Made by a program: the position numbers and the translations under genes. Shown here one piece after another: positions 44,435 to 59,579 of a DNA stretch of 64,000 nucleotides (the stretch's first letter is position 1; every line of letters begins with the position of its first letter). The stretch is from contig CAVSGG010000017.1 in the NCBI GenBank assembly GCA_963727455.1, positions 1 to 64,000 on the forward strand, given 5' to 3'. The notes beneath the pieces are model-generated. The model was not told where the DNA came from and did not search any database. It saw only the letters and a list, made by a program, of their open reading frames with translations. The stretch is from Candidatus Krumholzibacteriota bacterium. Its GTDB lineage: Bacteria > Krumholzibacteriota > Krumholzibacteriia > JAJRXK01.

Positions 44435-44456
44435 CGCGCGGTACTTTCCGTGGTGC

Positions 44457-45545
44457 TCAGCCCAGCCAGCCCTTCCTCTTGAAGTACAGAAGGAGGACGA
44501 TGGCAACCGCGATCATCAGGCCCCAGGCAAAGGGGTAGCCGAAGTACCAGTTCAGCTCCGGCATGTTCCAGGGGGATTTCTCAGGGTTGAAGTTCATGCC
44601 ATACAGCCCCGCGATGAAGGAGAGCGGGATGAACAGGGTCGCAATGATGGTCAGCACCTTCATGATCTCGTTCATGCGATTGCTCACGATGCTGAGGTAG
44701 AGGTCCATCAATCCGGAGCTGACGTCGCGATACGATTCGACGATGTCCATCAGCCGCAGGGCGTGGTCGTGACAGTCCCTCAGATAGACCTGCGTCGTCT
44801 CATCGATGAGACCGCTCTCGTCCCGTGCCAGTGAGCTCATCAATTCGCGTAGGGGCCAGATGTAGCGCCTCAGAGTGGCGAGGTCACGCTTGACCTGGTG
44901 GAGACTTCTGATCGTTTCTTGGTTCTGGTGATCCAGAACATCCGCCTCCAGATCTTCCAACTGATCTCCGTAGTACTCCAACAAGGGAAAGTACGCGTCG
45001 ACGATGGCGTCGAGAATGGCGTAGGCCAGATAGCCTGCCGATCCTTCGCGAATCCTGGGGCGGCCTTCGCGAAGACGCGCGCGGACCGGTTCGAGGCAGT
45101 CGCCGATCTGCTCCTGGAAAGTGAGCACGATTCCCGGACCCAAAAGCAGACTGAACTGCTCGGTCTCGAGCGTGTCGCTCGACCTCGGCATACGAAGCAC
45201 CACAAAGCGAAGATCCCCGTACTCATCCACCTTGGGCCTCTGGTTGACGTGCACGATGTCTTCGACCGCCAAAAGGTGCAGGCCGAAGGCCTTGGCCACC
45301 TCTTGAATGACATTTTCATTGCCCAGGCCGTCCACGTTGACCCAGGTCACCGCGCGTTCGCGGACTCGCGAGCGTAATGACGACAGATTGGTGATGTCCT
45401 CCTCGACGAGTTCCTGCTCGTTGTAGGAGGTGAGATGCACCTTGCTGGGCGCGGCTTCGGGATCTGAAAAAATCGTGCCGGGAGAGGCCCCGACGGGGGC
45501 ACGCCGCTTGGCGGGGTTCTTACGCTTCTTGGAGTGCTTCCTCAT
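44457..45545 (-). CDS. corA: Magnesium/cobalt transporter CorA
   Basis: 'GASPGT', 'QRPKVD', 'MNEIMKVLT', GMN motif 'YGMNF', 'MPEL'. RBS GAGGAG before ATG 45545. Confidence 0.95.
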   Translation of the reverse strand: MRKHSKKRKNPAKRRAPVGASPGTIFSDPEAAPSKVHLTSYNEQELVEEDITNLSSLRSRVRERAVTWVNVDGLGNENVIQEVAKAFGLHLLAVEDIVHVNQRPKVDEYGDLRFVVLRMPRSSDTLETEQFSLLLGPGIVLTFQEQIGDCLEPVRARLREGRPRIREGSAGYLAYAILDAIVDAYFPLLEYYGDQLEDLEADVLDHQNQETIRSLHQVKRDLATLRRYIWPLRELMSSLARDESGLIDETTQVYLRDCHDHALRLMDIVESYRDVSSGLMDLYLSIVSNRMNEIMKVLTIIATLFIPLSFIAGLYGMNFNPEKSPWNMPELNWYFGYPFAWGLMIAVAIVLLLYFKRKGWLG

Positions 45546-45947
45546 TGCGGGCTCCTCACGGGGATGGATCGTAAACGCGCGCAATCACGGTGTTGGGCAC
45601 GGATGGGGAGCGGAGGCGATCATATCAGAATCAATCCGTTAGGAAAGGCCGAGCTATTTTTCACAAAGTAGGGGGGATTCCGTGTGGGTTCTCGTCCTCA
45701 ATAGAGAGTCCGCTACTCAGTCGGTGCTGGTCCCGACCAGCCGAAAGAGTTGGGCTCCTGGGGTTGGGGCTGACCGCGCGAGGAAAGGGAGCCTCCTCGT
45801 CGGGAATGCCCCTCCCCACTCGTGCTTCCCGCGGAACGACAAACTCCCGTACTGGCAGGGTCACTGGACAGTGTGCCACGAGACACGATATTATCTATAA
45901 GTCCGCAATATTTTCATAGTGATTCACTGATTGAAAGTGATCTCGCT

Positions 45948-47294
45948 TTGAGGAGACTCTCCATACTTGGCTCATTGCCTTCCCGGCAGATTCGGCGCCG
46001 CGCCGGACTGCTCGTTCTCTCTACTTGTCTGTTCTGCGCCTTCACGAGCACATCCCGTGCTGAAGTCTCACCGGATATGGCCGAGCATATGATCATCTGT
46101 CCGGCCGAGTTTGCACCCCAATTCGAGGTCCTTGCGACTCACCGTACTGTCGTCGCAGATTTGCCGAGCTGTGTGGTGACTCTCGAGGATGTCCTGAGCA
46201 GCGCGCCCCAAGGGCGCGACGATGCGGAGACTCTGCGCAACTACCTCATTCAACAGCACGATCTGGGTCATCTCCAGTACGTTCTCTTGGGAGGGGACAG
46301 CAGCGTCATGCCGGTGCGGTTTGCGAGGAGCACGTTCTATCCGCAAGGAGGATTCTCGGACATTCCATCCGATCTTTATTTCGCCTGTTTGAACGGAGAC
46401 TGGGATGCCGATGGAGACTCCATCTTCGGTGAGGCCTATCTTGCATACGATGATCCGGGTGATGATGTGGATCTCGATCCCGAGCTTGCAGTGGGACGCG
46501 CGCCCGTGAATACGGTTGTCCAGGCAGAGCGGTTTGTACAGGGCATCCTCGCGTACGATACACTGAATCCAGCTCCACATCTCGCGTCCGCCACGATGCT
46601 CGCGGAGGTACTCTTCCCCAGCGATTGGGACGGCACAGCAGCAATTAATCTCGACGGTGCATCCTATGGCGAGCACTTTGCGGCCGCGCTGGGTACGCAT
46701 CCCTTCCCTCCGATGGTTGCTCGGGTCTACGAGAACTGGTTGGCCTATCCCGGCTCCACGAGACTAACCGTGAGTTCGGCCCTCGACGTTCTCAGTTCGG
46801 GCAACCAGGGTCTTCTGTGCTTCATTGGCCACGGAACTGCCGACGACTTCTCTGTAGGCGACGGCAGTATCACTCTCGCTCAACTCGACGCTCTGGCCAA
46901 CGCGCCGGACTACTTCCTCACCCTCGCCTTTTCGAGTAGCGCGGCGGCATTCACCCGGGATTGCGTGCTGGGGCATCTGGTAACCGCTCCTGCGGGAGGA
47001 AGCGCCGGCGCACTGGGATTCACGAGCGAGGTATTTCCCAGCACTGGCGATGACTACTTCGATGAATTTCTTGAAAACCTCAGCGCAAGTTCTGGCGTGC
47101 TCTTGGGAGATGCCATGAAGGCCGTCCTCAAGAGCTATGTGCCAGGCTTCCCCTCAGAGACTCTCCAGCGTTGGGCGAGCTTTGGTTGGTGCCTCCTGGG
47201 AGACCCCGCGACCCCGTTCCGCACCGAGTTGAACCCCATATCGACTCAGAATTCGAGCCTGGGTGGCTTGAAAGCGCGGTTCGGGCGACACTAG
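45948..47294 (+). CDS. Secreted peptidase C25 (gingipain) family protein, catalytic Cys apparently replaced by Ser
   Basis: 'YVLLGGD', 'PSDLYF', 'LAVGRAP', 'FIGHG', 'LLGDP'. C-terminal 'SSLGGLKARF'. Start uncertain (45948-45975). Confidence 0.85.
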   Translation: MRRLSILGSLPSRQIRRRAGLLVLSTCLFCAFTSTSRAEVSPDMAEHMIICPAEFAPQFEVLATHRTVVADLPSCVVTLEDVLSSAPQGRDDAETLRNYLIQQHDLGHLQYVLLGGDSSVMPVRFARSTFYPQGGFSDIPSDLYFACLNGDWDADGDSIFGEAYLAYDDPGDDVDLDPELAVGRAPVNTVVQAERFVQGILAYDTLNPAPHLASATMLAEVLFPSDWDGTAAINLDGASYGEHFAAALGTHPFPPMVARVYENWLAYPGSTRLTVSSALDVLSSGNQGLLCFIGHGTADDFSVGDGSITLAQLDALANAPDYFLTLAFSSSAAAFTRDCVLGHLVTAPAGGSAGALGFTSEVFPSTGDDYFDEFLENLSASSGVLLGDAMKAVLKSYVPGFPSETLQRWASFGWCLLGDPATPFRTELNPISTQNSSLGGLKARFGRH

Positions 47295-47394
47295 GGCTGA
47301 GCAAATCCCCTTGGAGGCGCGAGGGTTGCCCCTTTTGCTCGATTTGCGGTAGACTTGGCAGGGCTCCTTCCACTCGCCAGATAGGAGGCGCGCC

Positions 47395-48954
47395 GTGTTC
47401 CCCCGACGCCGTATTGGGTGCATCCTTCTTCTATTCACGTTGATCGCGGCACTTAACTTCTCTGCTCACGCCGCGACGCTTCTTGTTCCTGAAGATTTCA
47501 CATTCGAAACTGCTCTGAACAGCACCACTCCCGGAGATACCATTTCCGTCGCGGGGGGCACTCTCGAACACGGTTACGGGAAACTCCCACCAGGCATCGT
47601 TCTTCTCTCGCGCGAATCGCAGGGAAACACCCTGGTACAGTTGCTTGCCTGGGATCTATCCGAACCCTCTGTAGTGAAGGGCTTTCGCTTCGGATCGTCT
47701 GATTACTGGTATTACGACTGGAATCATATATCGCCGAGCTGGCTTGGCGTCATCGTTGACAATTCTCAAGTTTCGTTCGTCGACTGTCGTTTCATCGAGT
47801 TGGGATCGGGGTCCGGTTTCTTTCCCGATGAGGAATATCCGGGAGCTCAATACCAGCGTTACCCGCTCAATTTCGTGAATAAATCCGTGGTGAGTTTGAA
47901 TTCGTGCGTTCTCGCAGGCAACTTCATGGACGTGGACAGTATTCCCACCATGCCGCGCGGGATCAACTGTCACGACTCTTCGCTGGAAATCCGGAAATGC
48001 ATCATTGAGCAACAAGCTTTCGCCATTCGCGCAGACGGTCCTTTGACCATCACCGATAGTACTTTCCGCAATTCTCACGGTTACGTTCTGCAGTCCTTTG
48101 GCTCCCTTTGGATGTTGGGAAACCTGATTGTGGATTGTGGTCCCGAGTACTGGGTTGATCGCTACTTGTCGACGACGAAAGTGGCCTATTGCCGCACATT
48201 CGAAGGGATTCATCTGGCAGGATCGGTCCATCTTTACCGCAATACTTTTGTCGATAATCCAGTCTTGATAACCTCCGATTACAACATCTATTGCGAAGCA
48301 CCTGAACCAGACGCGCGGATGGCATTGGTCACGATCGAGTCGGGCGCCCAGGGTTGGATCGAGCGCAACCTCTTCATTGGATTGACGGGTCCCGCGGTCC
48401 AAGCTCCGGCCTCGATCGAGGTCTCGTGCAACGATGCTTGGGACGGCCTGGGGCAGTACTGGAGGGGCGGGATCGGCGACGTGACCGGAACAAACGGCAA
48501 CATTTCCGAGGCGCCCATGTTCTGCGGACGCAGCGAGGGGGATTATACCCTCAGCATTTATTCCCCGGCGGCCACCGCCGAATGTGGATCGATGGGGGCG
48601 TTTCCCACCGCCTGCGACACGAAGCTGGAGATTCCCGACGATGGCGGGCCCGGGCCCCAGGGGCAACCGGCGAAGCTGCAGACGCGCCTGCTCGGGGCCG
48701 CACCCAATCCCTTCAACCCGCGTACCGAGATCCGCTTCGAGCTGGAGCACGTGGGAGACGTACGGCTCGAGATCTTCGACGTCGCGGGCCGGCTGGTGCG
48801 CAGCTGGAGTCTGCCGCAGCTCGCCGCTGGACCGCATTCGATCCCCTGGGACGGCCACGATGCCCACGGCAATGCGGTCTCCAGCGGGGTGTACTATCTC
48901 CGATTGCAGTATGCGGGGAAAGTGCTCAGCGACCGCATGGCGCTGTTGCGCTGA
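47395..48954 (+). CDS. Secreted parallel beta-helix protein with C-terminal FlgD-Ig (T9SS type A-like) sorting domain
   Basis: RBS AGGAGG and signal peptide ending AHA. 'PGDTISV', beta-helix repeats, 'NGNISEAPMFC...DY.L...SP'. Tail 'PNPFNPRTEIRF...IFDVAGRLVR...WDG.D..G..VSSGVYYLRL'. Confidence 0.85.
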   Translation: MFPRRRIGCILLLFTLIAALNFSAHAATLLVPEDFTFETALNSTTPGDTISVAGGTLEHGYGKLPPGIVLLSRESQGNTLVQLLAWDLSEPSVVKGFRFGSSDYWYYDWNHISPSWLGVIVDNSQVSFVDCRFIELGSGSGFFPDEEYPGAQYQRYPLNFVNKSVVSLNSCVLAGNFMDVDSIPTMPRGINCHDSSLEIRKCIIEQQAFAIRADGPLTITDSTFRNSHGYVLQSFGSLWMLGNLIVDCGPEYWVDRYLSTTKVAYCRTFEGIHLAGSVHLYRNTFVDNPVLITSDYNIYCEAPEPDARMALVTIESGAQGWIERNLFIGLTGPAVQAPASIEVSCNDAWDGLGQYWRGGIGDVTGTNGNISEAPMFCGRSEGDYTLSIYSPAATAECGSMGAFPTACDTKLEIPDDGGPGPQGQPAKLQTRLLGAAPNPFNPRTEIRFELEHVGDVRLEIFDVAGRLVRSWSLPQLAAGPHSIPWDGHDAHGNAVSSGVYYLRLQYAGKVLSDRMALLR

Positions 48955-48969
48955 GGCGGGCGGGAGTTC

Positions 48970-50634
48970 TCAGTTCTGCTGGGCCTTGTGGACTGCGGTG
49001 CGTAGCAATTGCGCCCAGCTGTCGTCAGGCGCGAATTCCTCGTAGCGTTGTAGGAGTTGCTCCGCATCCTTGACTTTTCCCAGTGCCAAGCTCACCTGAA
49101 TCTGGTCATACAGCGCCCGCAGATAATTCGGGGTCGAGCTCTCGACGCGGGTCAGCAGCGCATCGGCTTGCTCGAGCAGCTTGCGGCGCTCGCTCTCCGA
49201 GACCGATTTCAGGGAACGCTGGTACTCCACGATGGCCAGACCGATGAGCGCTTCGGAATTGAGAGGGTCGTGTCGAAGTGCGGTTTGGTAGCTCTCTTCG
49301 GCCAGTATCAATTTCCCCCGGGCGAGCTTCAGATGGGCGAGAGCATTGCTTGTGCCGACCGGATCGATGCCCTTGCTCCGCTGGAGAATGAGCGTTTCCT
49401 CGGCCGCGACCATCTGGGACTCGCTGGAGGCTTCTTGGCTCCCGCGCAAGATTCCGGGATCCTCCGCGGAGAAATCCTGTGCGAGCCGGAGGGGCGCAGC
49501 GATACCGCTGGGATATCGTAGATGAAGTTCTCGGGCCGCCGGAGACTGCTTTCCTCCCAGAAGTGATCCCAAAGGAAGTCGGGAACGCACGAGGGGAGAG
49601 ACCAGCACCACGAGCGCCGCCGCGCACGCCACCAGAGTTTGGACGGCCTGGCGCCGGGGCCAGCGTGGGAAGGGGACGATTCGCGAGGAGTCTCGCTTCC
49701 TGGCTCGCTCAAGGATGGCTGCGTAGTACTCCGGAATGTCCTCCTGGCGGAGGTGCGCCCATTGCTGGGAATCCAGAGGGGCATCCAGGATGGAGACGAC
49801 TTTCGCCAGTTCACGGCGGGCCTCATCGTCGCGGCTCAGCAACTCCATGCGACGTGCAGTAGTCGTCTCGTCCAGCTCTCCCAAGACGAAGTCCAGAATC
49901 TCCTCGGAATCACGCCATCCCTCCCCTGTGGGACCATCGGGTTCGGGGTGGCCATCGTCGACCGAACGGGAACGAGCGCCGGGTCCTCCGAAATTCTGCC
50001 GGAGGATCTTGCGACCCCGCTCGATCACCTTCTCCACGCCGCCCCGGCTCAAGCCGAAGCTCTCGATCGAGGCAATGCGCGCAGCGGATAGTCCATCCAT
50101 GAGAGCCATGTTGCAGATGATGATATCGCGCTCGCAGGTGGGACGATTCTCCCAGTACTTTCGCAGAACGGGCGTGATGCGCTCTTGGATTTGTTTGATC
50201 TCGATTTCTACATCGATGGGCATGCCGCCGTCCCGCGCCTGTGCGATGAGCTGATCATGCGTCTCCTCATCCAAGGCCGCATACTTGGGGCGTCTTTGCG
50301 CGCCGTCCCGTTTCAGCTTGTCCCGAACCACGTTCGAAGCGGTCTTCCGTAAGTACATGTGAAACTCGCCTTCGCTGCGATCAGGATAACTACGGAGGTG
50401 TTTTCGGCCGTTTCCACAGAGTTTGGCCCAGCTGTCCTGACACGCATCTTCCACATCATCGTGGCTGAAGCGGCCGGGCACCTGCACCTGAAACATCCTC
50501 ACCACTGCCTGCCGAACCACTGAATCGAAGCGGCGGATCAATTCCGACCAGGCCCGATCGTCGTCGCTCGTCGCACAGAGTGCGTACACAACCGAAAACG
50601 GGGTGTCCTTTCCGCAATTCACGCTGGCTCCCAC
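48970..50634 (-). CDS. ECF sigma factor fused to anti-sigma-like domain, TM helix and TPR domain
   Basis: Sigma2 'AWSELIRRF...DVEDACQDSWAKL...YLRKTASNVVRD'. Sigma4 'RDIII...DGLSAARIAS..FGLSRGGVEKVIER'. Then 'EEILDFVLGELD...RRELA', TM 'TLVACAAALVVLVSPLV' and TPRs 'AEESYQTALRHDP.NSEAL'. Confidence 0.8.
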   Translation of the reverse strand: MGASVNCGKDTPFSVVYALCATSDDDRAWSELIRRFDSVVRQAVVRMFQVQVPGRFSHDDVEDACQDSWAKLCGNGRKHLRSYPDRSEGEFHMYLRKTASNVVRDKLKRDGAQRRPKYAALDEETHDQLIAQARDGGMPIDVEIEIKQIQERITPVLRKYWENRPTCERDIIICNMALMDGLSAARIASIESFGLSRGGVEKVIERGRKILRQNFGGPGARSRSVDDGHPEPDGPTGEGWRDSEEILDFVLGELDETTTARRMELLSRDDEARRELAKVVSILDAPLDSQQWAHLRQEDIPEYYAAILERARKRDSSRIVPFPRWPRRQAVQTLVACAAALVVLVSPLVRSRLPLGSLLGGKQSPAARELHLRYPSGIAAPLRLAQDFSAEDPGILRGSQEASSESQMVAAEETLILQRSKGIDPVGTSNALAHLKLARGKLILAEESYQTALRHDPLNSEALIGLAIVEYQRSLKSVSESERRKLLEQADALLTRVESSTPNYLRALYDQIQVSLALGKVKDAEQLLQRYEEFAPDDSWAQLLRTAVHKAQQN

Positions 50635-50794
50635 CAGAAAGACGAATTTCTTCGATTCCGGACGAAACCAGTGTGCTGGCTGCCTTCGGGGGCGTCAAGC
50701 CGCGCCCCCATCATTGCCTCTACACTCAAGACGAAAAAGCGTGGATACTTCCTAGTGGGATTTGCGAATTCTCAAACTCCGGTGGGAACCGACA

Positions 50795-53700
50795 TTGAGC
50801 AAAGCCGAGAAGCTGAGCAGTCGGGCTGCGCCCTCCTCTGCGGGGCGGCCCCTCTTGGCGTTGATCTGCGCCCTCTTGGCCCTTTTCGCGGGAGCTGCCG
50901 CGCACGGGGAGGAGCTCGCTCGCTTCACCCCTCTCTTACCTCCGGAGTCCCTGGCCAAGAGCTCCTGGATCGCCTCCAGTCCCGAACAGGCGGAAGGGGA
51001 GCTGGACGAGCTCACCGCCCGCACCGCCACTCAGCCCCAGCGACTGGAAAACTGGACCCACGCGACCATTCTGCAGTTGATTCTGCGTCGCCCCTTGGCG
51101 GCGCTGCGAACTCTGAAGCGGGCACAGAACTTCTCCTGGTCCCCCGAGGGGAAGCTGCAACTGGATTTCCTGGAAGCCGCGGCACAACTCGCGGTGGAGC
51201 CTCTGGAAATCGATGCCTTGGTGGGAGAGGATCACCTGGCCCGGGCCCGCGAGATTTTCCAGGAGCTGAAAAGACACCCTGAAACGGAGCTGCCTGCGAG
51301 CTTCGGGCTCGCCTGGATCGCATGCGAGATGGGCCACCCTGCGGCGGCACAGGAACTTCTCGACTCCACACGCGAACTTCCACTACAGGCCAGACAGCGA
51401 CTCTGGGAAGCCATGGTCCGCGCCTGTGGATCCACCATGGACAGCTGGCTACCGCATTTCAAGCGCGCGCTCGAGCAGAACGACCGTGCTCGACTCTCCG
51501 CCGCCGCTCGCCTGGCGCCCGGTCCCTTGCTCCTCCACTTGCAGCAAGCTCTCGACGATCCGATCGAGGAGGGGCTTGCGCTGGGCAAGGGGGGGAAAGC
51601 GGTAGATTTCTCCGCGGTCGACTCCCTTCTGAATCGAGTGAAGGAACCATTTCCCGGCGCCTATGCCGGCGTGCGCAAGCGCATGAGGAGTATCAGGGAG
51701 CTCGATCGGCAGGAAGGATCCCTTGCCCTGAGACTGGTGAAGGAGCTGCATCGTTTCGATAGCACATTCGGAAATCTGGATCTCCCCTGGGAGGAGCGCT
51801 GCCAGAGGGCCGTCCAAGTCTCGACGGGCAAGGCCGACACCTGCGAGGCCATGGGTCTCTGGTACCTCGCGGGGCGCTGGCACTGGGGTCGCGGCTACGC
51901 GCAAGCGCAGCTCGGGCATCCTCTGCAGCAATTGAGCGAGTACGAAGCCGCGCTCGAAGCGGCCAAGAAGCTGGATGATGCAGCCTATCTCTCCAAGACC
52001 GCGTTCAACCTCTTCATGGTGTGCGACGAGACCGCGAAGCAGGCGCAGCGCTTGGAGCTGCTACCCATGTTGGTGGAGCTTGCCGAGAGGACGGGAGTTT
52101 CGGTCGCGGAAGTTCTGATTGCAGAAGGCCGGGCCTACGAAGACCTCGGTGATCTGAAGAGGGCCTGGCGGCTCACGACCCACGCCTACCGTGAGAGCCG
52201 GCGTCGCGGCGCTCCCTACACTTCGATCAGCGCGCTTTCCAATTTGGCGTGGTTGGCGTTCCGTCAGAGCGAGAATCAGAAGGTGCAGCGTTACGCGCGT
52301 GAAATCCTCATGAGGACAGAGCCGGAGAATCTCCCCAAGAATCTTCCATCGTATAGAGAGACTATTTCCGCGATGCGGACCTGGGCCATGTTGGACCTGG
52401 GCCGGGCTCTGCCTTCGAATGATCCCCAGCGGCTGAAGTGGTACGAGAAGGCCGAAAAATCGGCGCGAGGTCAGGAACAGTACGCTCAGCTTCTTCATAT
52501 CCGCCTGGCTCGGGCTGAGGAGTTCTTGGCCGAGACGGATCTCGATGCCGCGCGGAAGTCGCTTCGCTCTGCCCGTACGCTCGCCCGCAAGAACGACTAT
52601 CGGTACGGTCTTTGGCGAATCGATGCTCTCCAGGCGCGTTACGAGAGTTTGCAGGGCGATTATTCCGCGGCGGCGCGCAGCTACGAGGCCGCCCTTTCGG
52701 GTCTGGAGGGAATCAGCGAACACATCAACGACGCCGAGCATCGCGCGAGTTTTCTCTTACCGGCCTCCGAAGTTTTCGAGGAGACAATCTCGCTCTTGCG
52801 AGGCCCGCTCCACGAACCTGGCGCGGCATACGCGGTCGACGAGCGCGCGCGGGCTCGGGCCCTCCTGCAGAAAGTCAGCGGGCGTGTCAACGGTTCCGAG
52901 CTTCGCAGCGCCGCGGAGGTGCAATCCAGCCTGAAGCACGACCAGGTTCTCCTTCAGTATCGCGTCCACGGGAAGGGCATCGATCTGTGGATACTCTGCT
53001 CCACGCAGCTCCGCTTCGTGGAAATCACCCAGAACGCCGATGAACTCGCGCAAAAAATCTCCCAGTGGCGTGAGGGTATCGAACGAGGTCTGCGGACCGA
53101 GCTGGGGGCACAGCTCGGTTCCCTCCTTCTGGGTCCGGCGGCCGGCGAACTGGCAGCTTGTGAGCACTTGATCATCGTCGCCAACGCACCATTGAGCCGC
53201 GTACCCTTCGCGCTCTTGAAACTGGATGGGCAGTACTTGCTTCAGCGCCACGCCGTTTCCTACGAACTCAGCGGCAGTATTCGCTGCGCCTTGCGAAACA
53301 GAAGGGCGCTTCAAGGAGACGAGAGGCTGCTCGCGGTGGGCTACGATGGGGGCAGCGCGGCGCGAAGTCTGCGACTGCCGGAGCTGCCCTTTGCGGAAGC
53401 CGAGGCCAGGATGGTGGAGGTGACCGCGCCTGCCGGACGACTTCTCTTGGGAAGGAGCGCCACGGCGGACAGCGTCGCCGCCCTGCTTCCCGGCGTGGGA
53501 GTTCTCCATCTGGCGACTCACGCCGGTCTCGACGAGTTCGGCGAGCCCTTCATCTTGCTGGCGCCGCAAGGGGGCGGCGCCGGTCTGATGCGCGAAGAGC
53601 AACTTTCGGCGTGGCCGTTGACGGACGTCTCTCTGGTTACCCTGGCTGGCTGTGAGACCGCGCAGCTCGGCTCCACGGAAGTGCAGGGCGATCTCTCTTC

Positions 53701-53923
53701 GTTGGGAGCCTCTATCTTCGCAGGGGGAAGTCGGGATCTAATTGCGTCTTTATGGAGTGTGGGGGACGACTCGACCATGAAACTGATGGTATCGTTCTAT
53801 CATGAACTTTTCGAGTCGCGCCGTCCTCCCGTGCAGGCGCTCCGCCACGCTCAATTGGAATTGGCACGGACCAATGGGACTCTCGAACGTGAATGGGGTG
53901 CGTTCTGCTTGTTCGGCCCATGA
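50795..53923 (+). CDS. TPR-CHAT (caspase-like, clan CD) protease with N-terminal signal/TM
   Basis: 'LLALICALLALFAGAAAHG' at the N-terminus. TPR region. 'ERARARALL', 'VPFALL', 'LPFAEAEA'. Catalytic 'LHLATHA' and 'LAGCET', then 'ASLWSVGD' and 'WGAF'. Start approximate. Confidence 0.9.
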   Translation: MSKAEKLSSRAAPSSAGRPLLALICALLALFAGAAAHGEELARFTPLLPPESLAKSSWIASSPEQAEGELDELTARTATQPQRLENWTHATILQLILRRPLAALRTLKRAQNFSWSPEGKLQLDFLEAAAQLAVEPLEIDALVGEDHLARAREIFQELKRHPETELPASFGLAWIACEMGHPAAAQELLDSTRELPLQARQRLWEAMVRACGSTMDSWLPHFKRALEQNDRARLSAAARLAPGPLLLHLQQALDDPIEEGLALGKGGKAVDFSAVDSLLNRVKEPFPGAYAGVRKRMRSIRELDRQEGSLALRLVKELHRFDSTFGNLDLPWEERCQRAVQVSTGKADTCEAMGLWYLAGRWHWGRGYAQAQLGHPLQQLSEYEAALEAAKKLDDAAYLSKTAFNLFMVCDETAKQAQRLELLPMLVELAERTGVSVAEVLIAEGRAYEDLGDLKRAWRLTTHAYRESRRRGAPYTSISALSNLAWLAFRQSENQKVQRYAREILMRTEPENLPKNLPSYRETISAMRTWAMLDLGRALPSNDPQRLKWYEKAEKSARGQEQYAQLLHIRLARAEEFLAETDLDAARKSLRSARTLARKNDYRYGLWRIDALQARYESLQGDYSAAARSYEAALSGLEGISEHINDAEHRASFLLPASEVFEETISLLRGPLHEPGAAYAVDERARARALLQKVSGRVNGSELRSAAEVQSSLKHDQVLLQYRVHGKGIDLWILCSTQLRFVEITQNADELAQKISQWREGIERGLRTELGAQLGSLLLGPAAGELAACEHLIIVANAPLSRVPFALLKLDGQYLLQRHAVSYELSGSIRCALRNRRALQGDERLLAVGYDGGSAARSLRLPELPFAEAEARMVEVTAPAGRLLLGRSATADSVAALLPGVGVLHLATHAGLDEFGEPFILLAPQGGGAGLMREEQLSAWPLTDVSLVTLAGCETAQLGSTEVQGDLSSLGASIFAGGSRDLIASLWSVGDDSTMKLMVSFYHELFESRRPPVQALRHAQLELARTNGTLEREWGAFCLFGP

Positions 53924-53946
53924 TTTCTCGTTTCAGGAGGTGCCTG

Positions 53947-54612
53947 GTGAGTCATTTCAAAGTCAGCAATCCAAGTCGCAAGAATCCTCAGATAGATGAC
54001 GCCATCCAAGGTGCCAGTCTCTCGGTTCGAAGCGGCAAAATGTCCTTCATCCAATACGGTTTTCTTCAAGATCCTGGTCCGGAAGTAGAGGGCCATTTTG
54101 ACCCAAAGCGAGTGGTCCTCCTCGTATTGAATGATTCCAAGAATGTTCAATACGAAATCGAGGGCGCCGAGAGTACGCGCGCATTAGGCCCTCACGGGGA
54201 AGACCATGTCATCATTCTGTGGCCAAAGAGCATGGAAGGGCCGCCTCCCAAAGCGCTCTCACCGAAGCATCTTTTCGGGTATCACCTGGAAGACGCCCGA
54301 AAAACGGGCCCGAGGGATTGGCCGCGTGAGTCGTTCAGGGGGAAAGACGGCCAAGGCCAGTGGAATTCAGCTTTGGTCTACTACGATCCCTCGGGAAGCT
54401 ACGGCTACTACTACAATACGGGGCCGGGAAAATGCACCGATGACTACCGCTTCGTACTCAAGTCCGAGGAACTCATTGCTTGGGTGTGGGAGAGCGAGGC
54501 GGACGAGCCAAGGCATCTGCTCGAGGACGGAGAGACCGTCAAGAACGCCCTAGAAGCGCAAGCCGGTGGTTCCCAGGGCGAGGGAGGAGCGCTGCCCTAT
54601 CCTCCGGGCTAG
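53947..54612 (+). CDS. Hypothetical protein in the CHAT operon
   Basis: RBS AGGAGG before GTG 53947. Fills the gap between CHAT and the S8-like gene. No recognisable domain. Confidence 0.7.
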   Translation: MSHFKVSNPSRKNPQIDDAIQGASLSVRSGKMSFIQYGFLQDPGPEVEGHFDPKRVVLLVLNDSKNVQYEIEGAESTRALGPHGEDHVIILWPKSMEGPPPKALSPKHLFGYHLEDARKTGPRDWPRESFRGKDGQGQWNSALVYYDPSGSYGYYYNTGPGKCTDDYRFVLKSEELIAWVWESEADEPRHLLEDGETVKNALEAQAGGSQGEGGALPYPPG

Positions 54613-54621
54613 GAATGAGCC

Positions 54622-56007
54622 GTGTCTCTGTACTCGTCTGACGGCAAGGCGGCGTTGCTGGTCCAGGGAGCTTGGCCCTCGCCGGTGACGCTGCCTCTTC
54701 TTGCCTCTGCGGACCAACGGAATGCACTCTGGGTTCAGAGTGAGGAACTCAGCGCACGCATTGAAGGCGAGTTTCCCGAGGTGCAAGTCCTGGGCGCCTG
54801 TACTCTCGCACCCCTTCTCTTGCTGCGTTGCGACGAAGAACAATGCGCGGGCATCCTCGAGGAACTCTCGCGCTGGCCACAGATCGAACGAGCGGAGGAG
54901 ACGCTTCCCGAAGAGGAAGGCGCGCTCCTTCAGCCTGTGAAGATCCCCGTCCTCGAGGAGGCGAAGGCCTGCATTGCCGGCTTTGCCGAGCTAGGCAATC
55001 CGCTCCTCGTGGAACTCGTATCCAACAAAGGCTGGGAGAGACTTCGAGACGCTCTTCGCCGAGCTCCTGGCAGCGATGGTCCTGAAAGCTCGCATGCGGA
55101 TTCCGTCCTGGCTGCCTTCCTCGAGACCCTGGGGCCAGAGCGCACCCCCCGATGCATTTTCGAGAGTCTGGGGCGTGGCGCGGGCCCCTTTGCATGGCTG
55201 GCGGCGATCGATCGACTCCTCTGTCGAGGGGCGAGCGTGATCAACTTGAGCTACGGCCGCTTGCCGATCGAACGCGAATTGGGCTGGAACGGATTGGAAT
55301 GGGGTACCCAGCTCCTCTGTCAGGGGAGTGGCCGGACAATCGTGGCAGCTGCGGGACGGGTCAACGAAGGCCTCAGCCTGGGAGATGCGCTGTACCTCCC
55401 GGCCTCTGTGCCGCAGGTGTTGGCCGCCGCCGATGAGCTGCGAGTGCAAGCCACCGGCTCAGAGCGGGAGGCCACAAAAGTTCTTCTAGCGTCGCAGTGC
55501 AATCCGCTCGAGGGCCGCTGGGGCTCCTCCTTCTCTGCTCCGCGGATCAGTGGACTGGCGGTGCGGGCCTACGATGATCTGCCGCGCGAGGCAAGGAAGC
55601 ACGAATCGGTTCTTTCCCTCCTTCTGGCCTCGGCCAGACCGTCCGGAACGTCGAGCCCCGGCTTTCCCGACTCGAAGCGGCTGTCCCAGATGATAGCGCG
55701 GGAAGACTATCGTCGTGGTCGGAACGAAGAACGAGCTGTGCTCCCGATCACTTCGGGCTTGCCGTTACGGCTCGCTCTCAGTTGGAGAGACAGCGATCTC
55801 GACCCGGATCTTTCCGTCTCCGCGGATCGAGACCAATCGCTTCTCCGACGGACCGGACAGTGGATGGTGATGGATTACCTCCCGACCAGCTCCAGAATCG
55901 AACTACGGGGTTTGTCAGGCCCTTGGTCCCTCGCCTGGCACCCCCTGAGCCCGGAGGAGTTCGCGATCTCGAAAGATGGATTGGGAAGCGTTGGAAAAGA
56001 GGCCTGA
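54622..56007 (+). CDS. Degenerate S8 (subtilase) family protein
   Basis: Propeptide-like N-terminus. 'SSHADSV', 'GASVINLSYG', 'IVAAAG', 'PASVPQVLA', 'GSSFSAPRISG'. C-terminal 'LRLALSW.D.DLD'. Confidence 0.75.
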   Translation: MSLYSSDGKAALLVQGAWPSPVTLPLLASADQRNALWVQSEELSARIEGEFPEVQVLGACTLAPLLLLRCDEEQCAGILEELSRWPQIERAEETLPEEEGALLQPVKIPVLEEAKACIAGFAELGNPLLVELVSNKGWERLRDALRRAPGSDGPESSHADSVLAAFLETLGPERTPRCIFESLGRGAGPFAWLAAIDRLLCRGASVINLSYGRLPIERELGWNGLEWGTQLLCQGSGRTIVAAAGRVNEGLSLGDALYLPASVPQVLAAADELRVQATGSEREATKVLLASQCNPLEGRWGSSFSAPRISGLAVRAYDDLPREARKHESVLSLLLASARPSGTSSPGFPDSKRLSQMIAREDYRRGRNEERAVLPITSGLPLRLALSWRDSDLDPDLSVSADRDQSLLRRTGQWMVMDYLPTSSRIELRGLSGPWSLAWHPLSPEEFAISKDGLGSVGKEA

Positions 56008-56106
56008 ATCGCCTCCAGCGAATCTCTTTCCCGCGTCCTGCAATCTGGACTTTTCTCACCGGCCAAAGCGCATCATATTCACCTGAGCCTAAAGCAGGGA
56101 GTCATC

Positions 56107-57129
56107 ATGGTGCGCAAGCCGGTTGTTCTGATAACGGGAGCCAACGGGGAGATCGGTCACGGACTGATCGAGAGAATGGCCGCAGACGGGAAGAAGGACG
56201 TCCTTGCGATCGATCTTCTGCCCCTCGATGACACTCTGCGTTCCTATTGCCACGATGCATTTGTGGGCAGCATCCTCGATTCCCATCTGAGTGAGCGCAT
56301 CGTCAGCCAATACGAAGTGGTGGAGATCTATCACCTGGCAGCCCTCCTCTCCACGCGAGCGGAGTTTACGCCGGAGACGGCACACCAGGTGAACGTCGAG
56401 GGCACCCTCGGGCTTCTCCAGCTCGCCCTGGAACAGTCGAGTTGGCGCGGGGAAGCGGTGAAGTTTCTCTTTCCCAGCTCCATCGCCGTCTATGGACTTC
56501 CGGACTCAAAGACCAAGAAGCGTGCGGGACGCGTGAAGGAGCACGAGTGGATCGCGCCGACCACCATGTATGGTTGTAACAAACTCTATTGCGAGGCCCT
56601 GGGCCGCTATTTTTCGCGCTACTACCGCCAGCTCGCTTCCGAGCCCGACCAACGCACCGTGGACTTTCGGAGCATTCGTTTCCCCGGACTCATTTCCGCA
56701 GTCACTCTGCCCAGCGGAGGAACCAGCGATTTTGCCCCGGAGATGCTCCACGCCGCCGCGAAGGGCGAACCCTACGCGTGCTTCGTGCGCGAAGATACGC
56801 AAATTCCCTTCATGGCCATGCCCGACGCGGTCGACGCCATCCTGAGCCTGACGGAGGCTCCGCGGGAGAGTCTGCGGCATTCGGTGTACAACATCGGCTC
56901 CTTCGCGCTCACGGCCGGCGAACTGGCCGCGACGGTGCGCAAGCACTACGCGGGCGCGGACATCAGCTTCGCCCCCGACCTGAAGCGACAGGGGATCGTG
57001 GATACCTGGCCCATGGACGTCAACGACGACGCGGCGCGCGAGGACTGGGGTTTCTCGCCCCGCTACGATCTCGATCGAGCGTTCACCGAATATCTCGTTC
57101 CCGCGATGCGCGAGCGCTACGCGGGCTGA
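56107..57129 (+). CDS. SDR-type L-threonine 3-dehydrogenase (NAD-dependent epimerase family)
   Basis: 'ITGANGEIG', 'YHLAALLS', 'PSSIAVYG', 'PTTMYGCNK', 'DFRSIRFPGLIS...GGTSD'. Confidence 0.85.
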   Translation: MVRKPVVLITGANGEIGHGLIERMAADGKKDVLAIDLLPLDDTLRSYCHDAFVGSILDSHLSERIVSQYEVVEIYHLAALLSTRAEFTPETAHQVNVEGTLGLLQLALEQSSWRGEAVKFLFPSSIAVYGLPDSKTKKRAGRVKEHEWIAPTTMYGCNKLYCEALGRYFSRYYRQLASEPDQRTVDFRSIRFPGLISAVTLPSGGTSDFAPEMLHAAAKGEPYACFVREDTQIPFMAMPDAVDAILSLTEAPRESLRHSVYNIGSFALTAGELAATVRKHYAGADISFAPDLKRQGIVDTWPMDVNDDAAREDWGFSPRYDLDRAFTEYLVPAMRERYAG

Positions 57130-57242
57130 GATCCCAGCACGAGAACTCGAAACTGTCGCCCGGCCTTTCCGCTGCCTACTTTGGAGCGCGCGCGAGTGCG
57201 CCCCTTGAGCATCGTATTGGAAGATTCGCCAGGAGGAATGTG

Positions 57243-58715
57243 ATGAGTGTCTCGGTCTTCGAGAAACTAAAGCCCGCTCTCATTTGGAAACACTTCGAAG
57301 CTCTGACGAGCATTCGGCGCCCCTCCGGCGAAGAGGAGCAAGCGCAGGAATATGTACGGAATTGGGCCCGGGAACATGACTTCGCGCTGCAGGAAGATGC
57401 CACCGGCAATCTGGTGGTGAGGGTGCCGGCGAGCCCGGGCAAGGAGAAGGCCCCGGTGGTGATCATCCAGGGTCATCTCGACATGGTCTGCGAGCGAAAT
57501 TCGGACAGCCCCTACGATTCCTTCGCGGGCAAGCTCCATCTCTTGCGCGAGGACGACTGGATCACGGCGGACGGCACCACACTGGGCGCCGACAACGGTA
57601 TCGGTGTTTGTGCGGGGATGGCAGTGGCGGAGGACCCCGCGGTCGAGCACGGTCCGCTCGAATTGCTGTACACCATCGACGAAGAGACGGGAATGACGGG
57701 CGCGCGGGGACTCTCGACCGAGATTTTGAGCGGTAAGCTGATGCTCAACCTGGATTCGGAAGACGACGACCTGATCTTCGTGGGTTGCTCGGGCGGGAAG
57801 GACACGCAGTATCGTTTGCCCATTACCCGCGAAAAAGTGCCCGCAGGACAGCTGGCAAGAAAGCTGAGCATCGCCGGGCTCAACGGCGGGCACTCCGGCT
57901 TGGATATCAACCGCAATCGCCTGAATGCGATCAAGGCCCTCGTCCAAATCCTCCACGAAAGTAGCAAGAGCGCAGCGTTCGAGTTAATACACATCGAAGG
58001 CGGTAAGATGCGCAACGCCATACCACGCGAAGCGCATGCCCTCCTCGCGCTGGATGCAGCGCAGGAAAATTCCCTGCGGCAAGCGGTGGAGACGGCGGCC
58101 ACTGAGCTGCGCGGGCAGTACGAGAAACTCGAGCCCGGCTTCGGCGTGCAGTTGGAGATGGTGGGCGAAGAGCTTCTTCAAGAGGGAGTCCTCCCGCGTG
58201 AGCTGAAGGAGCGCTTGCTCGCATTTCTTTTGGCGATTCCTAGCGGGGTGGTGGCGATGAGCCAGGACATCGAGGGTTTGGTCGAAACCTCCACCAACCT
58301 GGGAGTGCTGAAGACCGGCGCGAAGGCAGTGGAGGCCGTATCCTGCTCGCGCTCCTCGGTGGCGCCCGCACTGAAGACGGTGCTCGGACAATTGGCCGCC
58401 ATCGCGCGCCTGGCTGGCGTGGAAATCGAGGAAGTCGGCGGCTATCCGGGATGGAAGCCGGACATGGATTCCGTCGCCCTGAAGACGGTGAAAGAGAGCT
58501 ATCAGAAGCTCTTCGGAGAGGCCCCCCAAGTCACTGCCATCCACGCGGGGCTGGAATGTGGACTCATCGGTGAGCACCTACCCGGGATCGACATGGTCTC
58601 CTTCGGTCCCTCGATCCAGGGGGCCCACTCGCCCAACGAGCGGGTGAGCATCGCCTCGGTCCAGAAGTTCTACCGGCTGTTGAGCGAAGCGCTGAAGGAA
58701 TTGGCCAAGAGCTGA
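57243..58715 (+). CDS. pepD: Aminoacyl-histidine dipeptidase (M20C)
   Basis: RBS AGGAGG. 'QGHLDMVCE', 'TTLGADNGIG', 'DEETGMTGA', 'NLDSED', 'IHAGLECG', 'HSPNER'. Confidence 0.93.
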   Translation: MSVSVFEKLKPALIWKHFEALTSIRRPSGEEEQAQEYVRNWAREHDFALQEDATGNLVVRVPASPGKEKAPVVIIQGHLDMVCERNSDSPYDSFAGKLHLLREDDWITADGTTLGADNGIGVCAGMAVAEDPAVEHGPLELLYTIDEETGMTGARGLSTEILSGKLMLNLDSEDDDLIFVGCSGGKDTQYRLPITREKVPAGQLARKLSIAGLNGGHSGLDINRNRLNAIKALVQILHESSKSAAFELIHIEGGKMRNAIPREAHALLALDAAQENSLRQAVETAATELRGQYEKLEPGFGVQLEMVGEELLQEGVLPRELKERLLAFLLAIPSGVVAMSQDIEGLVETSTNLGVLKTGAKAVEAVSCSRSSVAPALKTVLGQLAAIARLAGVEIEEVGGYPGWKPDMDSVALKTVKESYQKLFGEAPQVTAIHAGLECGLIGEHLPGIDMVSFGPSIQGAHSPNERVSIASVQKFYRLLSEALKELAKS

Positions 58716-58739
58716 GCGGCCGGCGGGCGGACGCCGTGC

Positions 58740-58776
58740 TTGATTTTTTCCATTTATGATCATATGTTCATAATTG
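58740..58776 (+). promoter_or_regulatory. Sigma-70-like promoter overlapped by a 20-bp palindromic operator
   Basis: TTGATT (58740-45), 17 nt spacer, TATGTT (58763-68). Palindrome TTATGA-T-CATATG-T-TCATAA at 58754-58773 sits in an AT-rich patch. Confidence 0.65.
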
Positions 58777-58794
58777 TCACTTTCAGGAGAGTCC

Positions 58795-59217
58795 ATGCCC
58801 CGACCGCAGTCACCCCGCCGCATTTCTGAGGAACTGGCCGCCACGGTTTTCAAGCCGCGCGGGGTGCCGGTGGGGGAGCTGGAGACCCTCGAGCTCACTC
58901 TCGATGGACTCGAGGCGCTGCGCTTGGCCGATTTGGAAGGCCTCTATCAGGAGGAAGCGGCCCGGCGCATGGGGATTTCCCGCCCGACCTTCGCCCGTAT
59001 CGTGGCCGAGGCACGGCAGATCGTGGCCAGAGCTCTGCTGGAAGGCAAGGCCCTGACCGTACAGGGGGGGACGGTAGAGCGGGGCGCGCAGAAGGCGTGG
59101 CCCTGTCCCGTCCACGGACAAAGGCGACGGCGCGGACGCGGTTGCCGTTGCGAAGCGTTGCAATCTGGAGGCAAGAGACATGGAGACAAGTCGGCGGACG
59201 GTGGCGATCGCCAGTAA
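58795..59217 (+). CDS. DUF134 domain HTH protein
   Basis: 'MPRP..PRRI', 'FKPRGVP', 'EALRLADLEGLYQEEAARRMGISRPTFARI'. Confidence 0.92.
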   Translation: MPRPQSPRRISEELAATVFKPRGVPVGELETLELTLDGLEALRLADLEGLYQEEAARRMGISRPTFARIVAEARQIVARALLEGKALTVQGGTVERGAQKAWPCPVHGQRRRRGRGCRCEALQSGGKRHGDKSADGGDRQ

Positions 59218-59566
59218 CGGCACCTTGGGACTCAAGGGCAGCGTCAGTCAGCACTTTGGTCACTGCCGCAGTTGGGTGTTCGTGGATCTCGAGGGAGACG
59301 AGATTCTCGAGGTGCGGACTCTCGCGAACCCTTTCGAGTACGAACACAGCTGTGCGGAGGTGGCGGAGTTTTTGTCCGAACAGGGAGCGAATGTAGTCTT
59401 GGCCGGAGGGCTCGGGCGCAACGCGCACGGCCATCTCCTGAGTCTTGGAATCGAGGCAGTGTCCGGATTCGGTGGTGGAGTAGAGGAGTGCTTGGGGTCG
59501 TGGTTGAGGGGAGAGACGCCGGGACCAGCCGTGTGTGAACATCACGGGCAAGGCGACCACCACTGA
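59180..59566 (+). CDS. NifB/NifX family (FeMo-cofactor-binding-like) protein
   Basis: 'VAIAS', 'VSQHFGHC', 'VVLAGGLG', His/Cys-rich tail. Confidence 0.88.
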   Translation: METSRRTVAIASNGTLGLKGSVSQHFGHCRSWVFVDLEGDEILEVRTLANPFEYEHSCAEVAEFLSEQGANVVLAGGLGRNAHGHLLSLGIEAVSGFGGGVEECLGSWLRGETPGPAVCEHHGQGDHH

Positions 59567-59579
59567 TGCTGCTGGAAGC

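Follow-up and report, generated by a model that had tools for sequence, protein, structure and literature searches.

The 64,000-nucleotide window analysed here (bases 1-64000 of contig C17) belongs to a metagenome-assembled genome of the phylum Krumholzibacteriota (G000; 3.46 Mb, 88.85% complete, 6.68% contamination). It carries a compact unit of four genes, which encode a fusion of sigma factor, anti-sigma domain, membrane helix and TPR domain, a large TPR protein with a caspase-like CHAT domain, an orphan protein, and a subtilase-like protein of the S8 type. DNA nearly identical to the locus is present in metagenome runs from wetland and salt marsh, and the host group is a small set of uncultured wetland bacteria.

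The four open reading frames (ORFs) lie at 48970..50634 on the minus strand and at 50762..53923, 53893..54612 and 54622..56007 on the plus strand, where a first-pass annotation of this DNA had described them. The gaps of 23 nt between the CHAT and orphan genes (53924-53946) and 9 nt between the orphan and S8-like genes (54613-54621) that it had given are exact, as is its position for the catalytic Cys codon (53651), and annotation of the flanks bears out its statement that the genes around the unit are unrelated to it, these being housekeeping or secreted-protein genes. The start of the fusion gene has been refined to 50622, the equivalent codon being ATG in the orthologue of G004, and that of the orphan gene to a GTG at 53947, with AGGAGG located 6 nt upstream and ATG found at the same position in G003 and G001. 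The CHAT gene starts with TTG, either at 50762 or at 50795, and the divergent spacer that separates it from the fusion gene measures 127-172 nt, varying with the starts chosen. The features of the locus are collected in the table.

Table. Features of the four-gene unit, in window coordinates
Feature	Position	Strand	Basis or remark
Sigma fusion gene	48970..50622	-	550 aa from the refined start; ORF open to 50634
Predicted ECF-type sigma module, residues 1-211 (sigma-2 and sigma-4)	49990..50622	-	TIGR02937, Sigma70_r2, stand-alone relatives
Junction GGPGARS, residues 212-218, at the sigma-4/anti-sigma boundary	49969..49989	-	Invariant in 8/8 sequences
Predicted anti-sigma domain, residues 238-300	49723..49911	-	Alignment to HxxxCxxC orthologues; weak zf-HC2 and PRK13920 matches
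Single membrane helix, residues 324-349	49576..49653	-	Kyte-Doolittle 19-residue maximum 2.29; hydrophobic in every orthologue
Outer juxtamembrane motif P..... PLRL.Q....E..G..R, residues 371-393	49444..49512	-	Candidate cleavage or docking site, function inferred
Outer (probably periplasmic) TPR domain, residues 413-550	48973..49386	-	TPR_16, TPR_19
ECF-type promoter-like element TAGGAA-N14-TCGTC	50730-50754	-	Points at the sigma fusion gene; putative function
Second element CTTGACG-N17-CAnACT	50670-50698	-	Points at the sigma fusion gene; putative function
TPR-CHAT gene	50762..53923	+	Start at 50762 or 50795
N-terminal hydrophobic export signal or anchor of the CHAT protein, residues 14-39 counted from 50795	50834..50911	+	Kyte-Doolittle maximum 2.17
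CHAT caspase-like domain	53099..53920	+	His codon 53519-53521, Cys codon 53651-53653; PF12770
Orphan gene	53947..54612	+	221 aa, beta-rich; no known family or fold
Conserved C-terminal tail of the orphan, residues 207-221 (GG.QGEGGALPYPPG)	54565..54609	+	12-sequence alignment
Pro-subtilisin-like S8 gene	54622..56007	+	461 aa; without export signal
N-terminal beta-alpha-beta-beta-alpha-beta domain, residues 9-94, placed as a subtilisin propeptide	54646..54903	+	AlphaFold2 (AF2) model
Subtilase catalytic domain	54973..55656	+	Family alignment; PDB profile match to PatA/PatG
Glu123, at the Asp place	54988-54990	+	Family alignment
His158	55093-55095	+	Family alignment
Arg246, at the oxyanion Asn place	55357-55359	+	Family alignment
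Ser303	55528-55530	+	Family alignment
C-terminal beta domain of the S8-like protein, residues 347-441	55660..55944	+	AF2 model

The conservation of the four genes was surveyed in 208 Krumholzibacteriota genomes, G000 included, and all of them are found in the same seven (G000-G006), which represent three genera of one family. This holds for the sigma fusion (E ≤ 1e-10), for the orphan, for the full-length CHAT protein and for the S8-like family (E 2.3e-43 or better; four further genomes give only weak generic S8 matches in this search), each in 7/208, against 110/208 genomes with a CHAT domain of any kind. The three genomes of the fourth genus of the family contain neither sigma fusion, orphan nor S8-like gene, and two of them give CHAT-domain matches only, not the full-length protein. 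A lack of co-occurrence elsewhere was one of the outcomes that the first-pass annotation had named as refuting its reading, and this outcome did not arise: in these seven genomes the genes are not only jointly present, they are also adjacent and in the same order in every case. Protein identities between genera fall to 22-39%, and the surroundings change: acyl-CoA dehydrogenase and CorA genes lie on one side and an epimerase gene on the other in the genus of the window, and hisS downstream with unrelated genes upstream in G005 and G006. Joint retention at this depth and across such a change of context supports the four genes being a co-inherited functional unit, though the genomes are kin and therefore not independent. 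None of the fusion, orphan and S8-like genes has a paralogue in G000.

The N-terminal part of the fusion appears to be related to the extracytoplasmic function (ECF) sigma factors. Residues 28-214 match TIGR02937 at E 2.1e-8 and 34 bits, below the 42.9-bit cut-off of the model, and Sigma70_r2 of Pfam matches at E 0.042, reaching E ≤ 0.01 in six of the eight orthologues. A profile built from these eight sequences and searched against 1.84 billion representatives matched 2872 proteins at E ≤ 0.001, of which 865 reach E ≤ 1e-10. Among the best 150 matches there are four full-length fused forms (P0026, P0027, P0028 and P0030) and two fragments, nearly all the others being stand-alone proteins, mostly of 190-310 aa, which cover only profile positions ~5-215; such sigma-sized relatives match the profile at E 1e-41 to 1e-19. 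Ten relatives were scanned, nine of them stand-alone, and six of these nine pass the TIGR02937 cut-off, the fused P0030 failing it. Taking into account that most of the stand-alone relatives scanned pass, the N-terminal part of the fusion is probably a divergent but genuine ECF-type sigma, and the fused form is rare. A word-indexed protein search with the fusion found at least five proteins, and a tblastn search of plasmids with the sigma part found nothing. None of the other 201 genomes of the phylum contains a match to the sigma part at E ≤ 1e-10, although 865 such matches were obtained worldwide, which suggests that the unit, or its sigma, may have come from outside the phylum.

Between sigma-4 and the membrane helix, in the position expected for a class I anti-sigma domain, the fusion carries a domain in which the zinc ligands have been lost in the genus of the window. 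The motif HxxxCxxC is found at the aligned place in G005 and G006, the two deepest orthologues (2/8 sequences); zf-HC2 matches one of the eight sequences (E 0.0049), and the anti-sigma model PRK13920 matches residues 246-345 of the window's protein weakly (E 0.022). Hydropathy indicates one membrane helix, and at the C-terminus both TPR_16 and TPR_19 score over their cut-offs. Since the sigma part must be cytoplasmic and a single helix lies between the two, the TPR domain would lie outside the membrane. Two short segments appear, in the alignment, as conserved islands amid variable linkers. The junction GGPGARS is 100% identical to G005 and G006, the adjacent segments being 11-47% identical, and the outer juxtamembrane motif is 52-61% identical to these orthologues, with flanking linkers at 5-26%; P371, P377, L378, R379, L380, Q382, E387, G390 and R393 are invariant in it.

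The second protein belongs to the CHAT family, PF12770 matching at E 5.8e-43 and 147.8 bits against a cut-off of 24. Its catalytic His and Cys (His909 and Cys953) are retained in 7/7 orthologues (6/6 aligned, plus G006), and so is a hydrophobic N-terminal segment preceded by basic residues (again 6/6 aligned, plus G006), which in G002 and G006 resembles a classical signal peptide. The presence of this segment in all the orthologues leads us to read the CHAT protein as probably exported or anchored and lying mostly in the periplasm, a location predicted from hydropathy and alignment. A lipoprotein was also considered and ruled out, the signal being devoid of a lipobox. If exported, the CHAT protein can meet only the outer TPR part of the fusion. 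A search of genome contigs with the CHAT alignment returned only the five relatives already known.

G000 contains two further large TPR-CHAT genes, at C1:10301-13258 (L034) and C3:47757-50738 (L035), both without a sigma neighbour. That on C3 is followed, on the opposite strand, by genes for a protein with a Peptidase_S74 (endosialidase chaperone) domain and for a small protein that carries a sorting domain of type IX secretion.

The S8-like protein misses the Pfam S8 cut-off by 0.7 bits (21.1 against 21.8). Its orthologue in G006 reaches 45.4 bits, and PF00082 is found in three database relatives. When the family profile was compared with the sequences of the PDB, the best matches were the cyanobactin proteases PatA/PatG/PagA (E 2.2e-15 to 7.8e-14), the best of them, to PatA/PatG, spanning residues 177-344; in NCBIfam, QhpE ranks first, though weakly (E 3.6e-4). 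The AF2 model (mean predicted local distance difference test, pLDDT, 78.6; predicted template modelling score, pTM, 0.85) indicates a subtilisin fold with propeptide-like, catalytic and C-terminal beta domains. From residue 8 it aligns with unprocessed pro-subtilisin E (3whi; Z 22.3, root-mean-square deviation 3.4, 271 residues aligned) and with PCSK9 (5vla, Z 21.6), its residues 115-441 align with the subtilase KP-43 (1wmd; Z 20.5, root-mean-square deviation 3.6, 294 aligned), and subtilisin BPN' and its engineered variants appear with Z 17.3-17.9 among the best 50 matches listed. The propeptide-like domain is absent from G006 and probably also from G002.

Regarding the active site, the catalytic Ser is present in 12/12 sequences of the family and the His in 10/10 of those covering that place. 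The acid is Asp in 6/9 and Glu in 3/9, the window having Glu, and the oxyanion residue is Asn in only 2/12, Gln in six and Arg in four, the window having Arg; the acid and His places were assigned by motif likeness and from the fold model. The first-pass annotation had called this protein a degenerate subtilase. This is only partly right: the protein may fairly be called divergent, but degeneracy does not follow, since with Ser and His kept it is not clearly inactive. Hydropathy reveals neither a membrane segment (maximum 1.33) nor an export signal, and the N-terminus was discarded as a signal peptide, residues 9-16 forming the first strand of the propeptide-like domain with pLDDT ~86. A word-indexed search with this protein found at least seven proteins, and three close relatives, on short contigs, were obtained from metagenome contigs with the family alignment.

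The orphan has no match in Pfam, NCBIfam or PADLOC, and a word-indexed search of 5.8 billion clusters gave only ten relatives. It contains no hydrophobic segment (hydropathy maximum 0.42). Its structure model is beta-rich (pLDDT 72.7, pTM 0.75) and found no counterpart at E ≤ 0.001 with Foldseek against the PDB or in BFVD, no usable match in the ESM Atlas, and a best Z of 3.6 with VIA-align against 48,161 chains; at this middling confidence of the model a new fold is not claimed. The last 15 residues are disordered in the model, with pLDDT <50 over residues 211-221, yet conserved: P219 and P220 are invariant in 12/12 sequences, G207, Q210, G214 and P217 are nearly so, and every sequence ends in [YW]PP.

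Complex prediction for the S8-like protein with the orphan gave a score of 0.50, the best of three controls giving 0.00, which lends weak support to a pairing. Contact agreement among the runs was at least 68% and partner pLDDT at least 68, with no interface reported. The mark applied to these scores is reached by 58/80 solved complexes and 2/110 mismatched pairs, scores at the mark but not above 0.60 coming from only 7/80 solved complexes plus both passing mismatches, and according to the prediction tool passes of this kind are wrong in the majority of cases if the guess was not already a likely one.

These two proteins also diverge together. Between G000 and G003, whose syntenic ORFs are mostly 85-95% identical, the sigma fusion (identity 91%, synonymous divergence (dS) 0.50, ratio of non-synonymous to synonymous divergence (dN/dS) 0.11) and the CHAT protein (86%, 0.66 and 0.13) are at baseline. 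The orphan (61%, 1.24 and 0.23) and the S8-like protein (60%, 1.22 and 0.24) are outliers, so that the two diverge jointly and faster than their neighbours, but within the bounds of purifying selection. Co-evolution of the pair or an exchange of old alleles would fit; positive selection is not indicated.

In the same comparison, CorA (identity 96%, dS 0.10, dN/dS 0.21) and the epimerase (99%, 0.19 and 0.02) represent the flanks. The flanking genes (43295-45584 and 56107-57129) are unusually alike in the two genomes, acyl-CoA dehydrogenase at 99%, CorA at about 96-97% and the epimerase at 99%, with dS of 0.10-0.19, against a syntenic baseline of about 85-90% identity. The mosaic pattern of identities around the locus suggests recombination between the species of G000 and G003.

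The divergent spacer contains two elements that point at the fusion gene. ECF promoters of the GGAA(C)...CGT type are known, and TAGGAA-N14-TCGTC resembles these; its TAGGA and TCGTC blocks are invariant and equally spaced in 5/5 genomes of the genus, the surrounding spacer diverging, and CTTGACG-N17-CAnACT is kept in the same five. Such putative elements would fit autoregulation of the fusion gene, with a second promoter besides. In G006 only ~42 nt separate the fusion and CHAT genes, and the promoter blocks of the window's genus cannot sit there in the same arrangement. In a scan of the genome, AGGAA-N14-16-TCGTC gave 38 matches where ~15 are expected from base composition, and as a scan of this kind is too unspecific, no targets of a regulon are named. 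Consensus promoter and terminator scans gave nothing useful, and no Rfam family was found within 44000-60000. A 378-nt contig from one metatranscriptome library, identical over 371 nt, falls on 49665-50035 within the fusion gene, which is only a weak hint of transcription because DNA may occur in such libraries. It is the sole contig of that library on the locus, and the missing coverage of the remainder is not informative.

The closest relative of the locus by architecture is DdvA of Myxococcus xanthus, in which a zinc anti-sigma domain at the N-terminus has been described, followed by one membrane helix and by a TPR-CHAT region in the periplasm (PMC11506125), with structures in PDB 8ROT and 8RW5. 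Without its outer domain DdvA is cut by RseP, and self-cleavage by CHAT upon a signal has been proposed as the first step; according to the same source this proposal could not be tested, because protease and substrate form one chain and the signal is unknown (PMC11506125). The parts which the locus has in common with DdvS/DdvA are an ECF sigma, a single-pass membrane anti-sigma, an outer TPR region with the His-Cys pair of CHAT, and an available RseP-type protease, encoded in the genome as an M50 protease at C5:5752-7050 (E 1.2e-67). However, in DdvA the TPR-CHAT region is inside the anti-sigma and the sigma is separate, whereas in this locus the sigma is fused to its anti-sigma and the TPR-CHAT protein is a separate, probably exported one, so that cleavage would occur in trans. 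Moreover, unlike in DdvA, the anti-sigma domain of the window is devoid of zinc ligands, the orphan and S8-like proteins are additional, and there is no CBASS or CRISPR system nearby. The CHAT module of DdvA is reported to lack a three-helix motif.

In type III-E CRISPR systems, the TPR-CHAT protein Csx29 reportedly cleaves Csx30, which is said to bind an RpoE-like sigma. The locus resembles this craspase in that a TPR-CHAT protease is tied to an ECF-like sigma, but the craspase is cytoplasmic and RNA-guided by Cas7-11, and here the CHAT protein is probably exported. The flanks of the unit showed no cas gene, Cas1 was not found in the 88.85%-complete genome, no tandem array was found in the window, and the III-E sigma model NF041236 scores 17.3 bits on the fusion against a cut-off of 100, which leaves it outside type III-E. 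Together with the PADLOC searches, these results bear out the independence from CRISPR that the first-pass annotation had stated. The craspase itself is described as a TPR-CHAT protease acting in CRISPR defence (PMC10028731).

Sigma factors fused to membrane anti-sigma domains have been described for ECF48, ECF52 (SCO4117), ECF53 and IutY of ECF243, and their proteolytic release has been proposed (PMC8999054); activation of IutY has been reported to involve Prc and RseP (PMC8999054, PMC5826349). As in these proteins, a single chain displays the order sigma, (zinc-finger) anti-sigma, membrane helix and outer domain. Their outer domains, however, are proline-rich, carbohydrate-binding or FecR-like instead of TPR, and in the available text of the source they have no described CHAT or S8 partner (PMC8999054). 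They come from other phyla (Actinobacteria, Pseudomonas) and are likened to the locus by architecture only. The neighbours of ECF54 sigmas include carboxypeptidase, subtilase and CHAT domains, and proteolytic control has been proposed for this group (PMC8999054, section 3.3). Unlike the unit described here, in which the anti-sigma is fused to the sigma, the actinobacterial ECF54 group is said to be without an anti-sigma, this comparison being made by description (PMC8999054). CHAT is not mentioned in the available text of the ECF classification paper (PMC7826278).

As for the S8-like protein, it shares with PatA/PatG/PagA, QhpE, EpiP, pro-subtilisin E and PCSK9 a subtilase fold with a propeptide-like N-terminal domain, and with cytoplasmic maturation proteases the absence of an export signal. 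It departs from processing subtilases in having Glu at the Asp place, Arg at the oxyanion Asn, and an extra C-terminal beta domain. PatA and PatG are encoded in a cyanobactin cluster together with a precursor peptide and a heterocyclase, whereas no such genes flank the locus; no cyanobactin, lanthipeptide or quinohemoprotein genes were found in the flanks of the window's unit, of G005 or of G006.

Taking into account that the parts of DdvA are present in a rearranged form, and that an RseP-type protease is available, regulated proteolysis with a trans-acting CHAT protein is the best-supported model. The locus would then be a lineage-specific, rearranged switch of the DdvS/DdvA type, one that keeps an ECF sigma inactive at the membrane until regulated proteolysis sets it free, a reading to which we assign a probability of somewhat less than one half (about 45%). 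A periplasmic signal would activate or recruit the CHAT protease, which would cut the outer part of the fusion in trans, probably at the Arg-containing motif 371-393, whose two invariant Arg residues (R379 and R393) are counted in favour of such a cut. The shortened stub of the fusion would become a substrate of the RseP-type intramembrane protease, the sigma/anti-sigma piece would be freed into the cytoplasm and its anti-sigma part removed, and the sigma would drive its own promoter plus other targets. The S8-like protein, presumably cytoplasmic, and the orphan belong to the unit, and are not placed at a step. We infer the locations of all these proteins from their sequences. The first-pass annotation had let cleavage by CHAT release the sigma; this is overstated, further steps being needed within the membrane and in the cytoplasm.

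Several observations weigh against this model. No ECF-type motif was found on the strand of the spacer that reads into the CHAT operon, so that control of the operon by the sigma is not shown. CHAT proteins are common in the phylum and G000 has two further CHAT genes without a sigma neighbour, which means that the CHAT protein of the unit could have other substrates. With a profile of six CHAT orthologues, DdvA was not retrieved from the PDB sequences at E ≤ 0.01, the sole match being a TPR one, to an unrelated protein, so that DdvA is likened to the unit purely by architecture. Neither the orphan nor the S8-like protein has an export signal, and the two do not fit a purely periplasmic cascade. 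Some stand-alone sigma relatives finish in a GGxxxR tail, and GGPGARS may in consequence be the plain end of the sigma module, that is, simply the C-terminal tail of this sigma family. Finally, in G001 (L008, contig C7, 4075-5734, minus strand) the fusion matches in two frames (query residues 1-401 and 393-553), beside CHAT, orphan and S8-like genes that are whole, the result of a frameshift or an assembly error; unless it is the latter, the operon can persist without an intact fusion.

It is unlikely, although more probable than the other alternatives, that the operon is an output or a mere neighbour of the switch. In that case a general envelope protease (Prc- or DegS-like) would make the first cut, the outer TPR domain would sense something else, and the proteins of the operon would act on other substrates, for instance envelope or secreted ones. 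The 110 of 208 phylum genomes with CHAT-domain proteins, mostly lacking this sigma, together with the two other CHAT genes of G000, which have no sigma neighbour, and the intact operon beside the split gene of G001, speak for such an arrangement, as does the frequent location of ECF sigma genes next to their target operons. It has been pointed out that regulators and targets are indistinguishable in a conserved neighbourhood (PMC7826278). But an output operon is at odds with the lack of an ECF-type promoter element on its strand; the full-length CHAT protein accompanies the fusion in 7/7 genomes and is found in 0/201 elsewhere, a distribution that a dedicated partner fits at least equally well, and DdvA links exactly these two domain types (PMC11506125).

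An elaboration of the proteolytic switch into a relay across two compartments seems improbable as it stands. It would have the exported CHAT protein cut motif 371-393 and, after the intramembrane cut, the cytoplasmic S8-like protein sever the sigma from the attached anti-sigma domain at GGPGARS, the orphan, with its conserved proline-rich tail, gating or guiding this protease as an inhibitor, decoy substrate or adaptor. If this were true, the orphan and the S8-like protein would be diverging fast together as a co-evolving pair.

That fast divergence could also reflect diversification of signal specificity, in a loop where the S8-like protein cuts the orphan at its tail and the exported product is sensed by the outer TPR region of the CHAT protein or of the fusion, which would set off the cascade. 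We regard such peptide signalling as slightly less probable still. Consistent with it are the nearest solved relatives of the S8-like protein by sequence (the peptide-maturation proteases PatA/PatG/PagA) and its weak QhpE match (3.6e-4), the lack of export signals in both proteins, the disordered and conserved orphan tail with [YW]PP in 12/12 sequences, the weak complex score of 0.50, and the divergence of both (61% and 60% identity between G000 and G003, against a baseline of about 85-90%; dS 1.2 against 0.5-0.66; dN/dS 0.23-0.24). However, the unit contains neither an exporter nor a peptide-modifying enzyme, the orphan, with 221 aa and a folded body, is unlike usual precursor peptides, the oxyanion Asn of the window's S8-like protein is replaced by Arg, and the complex prediction reported no interface.

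Least probable of all is an anti-phage or conflict module, in which the periplasmic CHAT protein would sense an invader and turn on a defence regulon, as has been proposed for DdvA, or act as a caspase-like executioner: a CBASS/CRISPR island is under the control of DdvS/DdvA (PMC11506125), type III-E defence makes use of TPR-CHAT proteases (PMC10028731) and the orphan and S8-like protein outpace their neighbours in divergence, but no PADLOC family matches any of the four proteins, the flanks in the window, G005 and G006 are without defence genes, Cas1 was not found in the genome at its 88.85% completeness, the unit sits in stable, syntenic chromosomal contexts, dN/dS values of 0.11-0.24 indicate purifying selection, and only a subset of DdvA-like pairs is described as lying near defence systems (PMC11506125).

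Other genes of the neighbourhood deserve a brief description. Upstream of the unit, 45822-47294 (plus strand) encodes a gingipain-like Peptidase_C25 protein (E 2.1e-43), without a counterpart in the syntenic region of G003 and with one in G001 at 66% identity. The gene at 47395-48954 (plus strand), also upstream, encodes a protein with a C-terminal FlgD_ig domain; its identity between G000 and G003 is a mere 60%, a departure from the baseline as large as that of the orphan. On the other side, an ORF at 56589-58715 overlaps the epimerase gene (56107-57129), and its match to an M20 peptidase starts only at residue 293, so the true start of the M20 gene is probably much later.

With respect to the first-pass annotation as a whole, the co-inherited unit, the absence of a CRISPR link and the His-Cys pair (7/7) stand, the claim of an undescribed system does not, a possible defence role is unsupported, and the term degenerate for the S8 protein is only partly right. 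An ECF sigma under a periplasmic TPR-CHAT protein has already been published for DdvS/DdvA (PMC11506125, PMC6061681), and CHAT and subtilase domains have been described beside ECF54 (PMC8999054). As to defence, neither the four proteins in PADLOC nor the genes nearby gave any indication of it. What is new is the sigma/anti-sigma fusion with an outer TPR domain, the cytoplasmic pro-subtilisin-like protein and the orphan, and beyond the papers cited here the combination of these parts was not found in the published literature.

The unit is confined to 7/208 genomes of one phylum, in an uncultured lineage. Within that scope, the presumed protease and its presumed substrate are here separate proteins, with catalytic and candidate target residues at hand, and as CHAT and fusion are separate, cleavage in trans is testable by simple co-expression. 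How a sigma is parted from an inhibitor to which it is covalently joined is a further question posed by the locus, and two other proteins, one cytoplasmic and pro-subtilisin-like, one of unknown fold, are strictly inherited with this switch.

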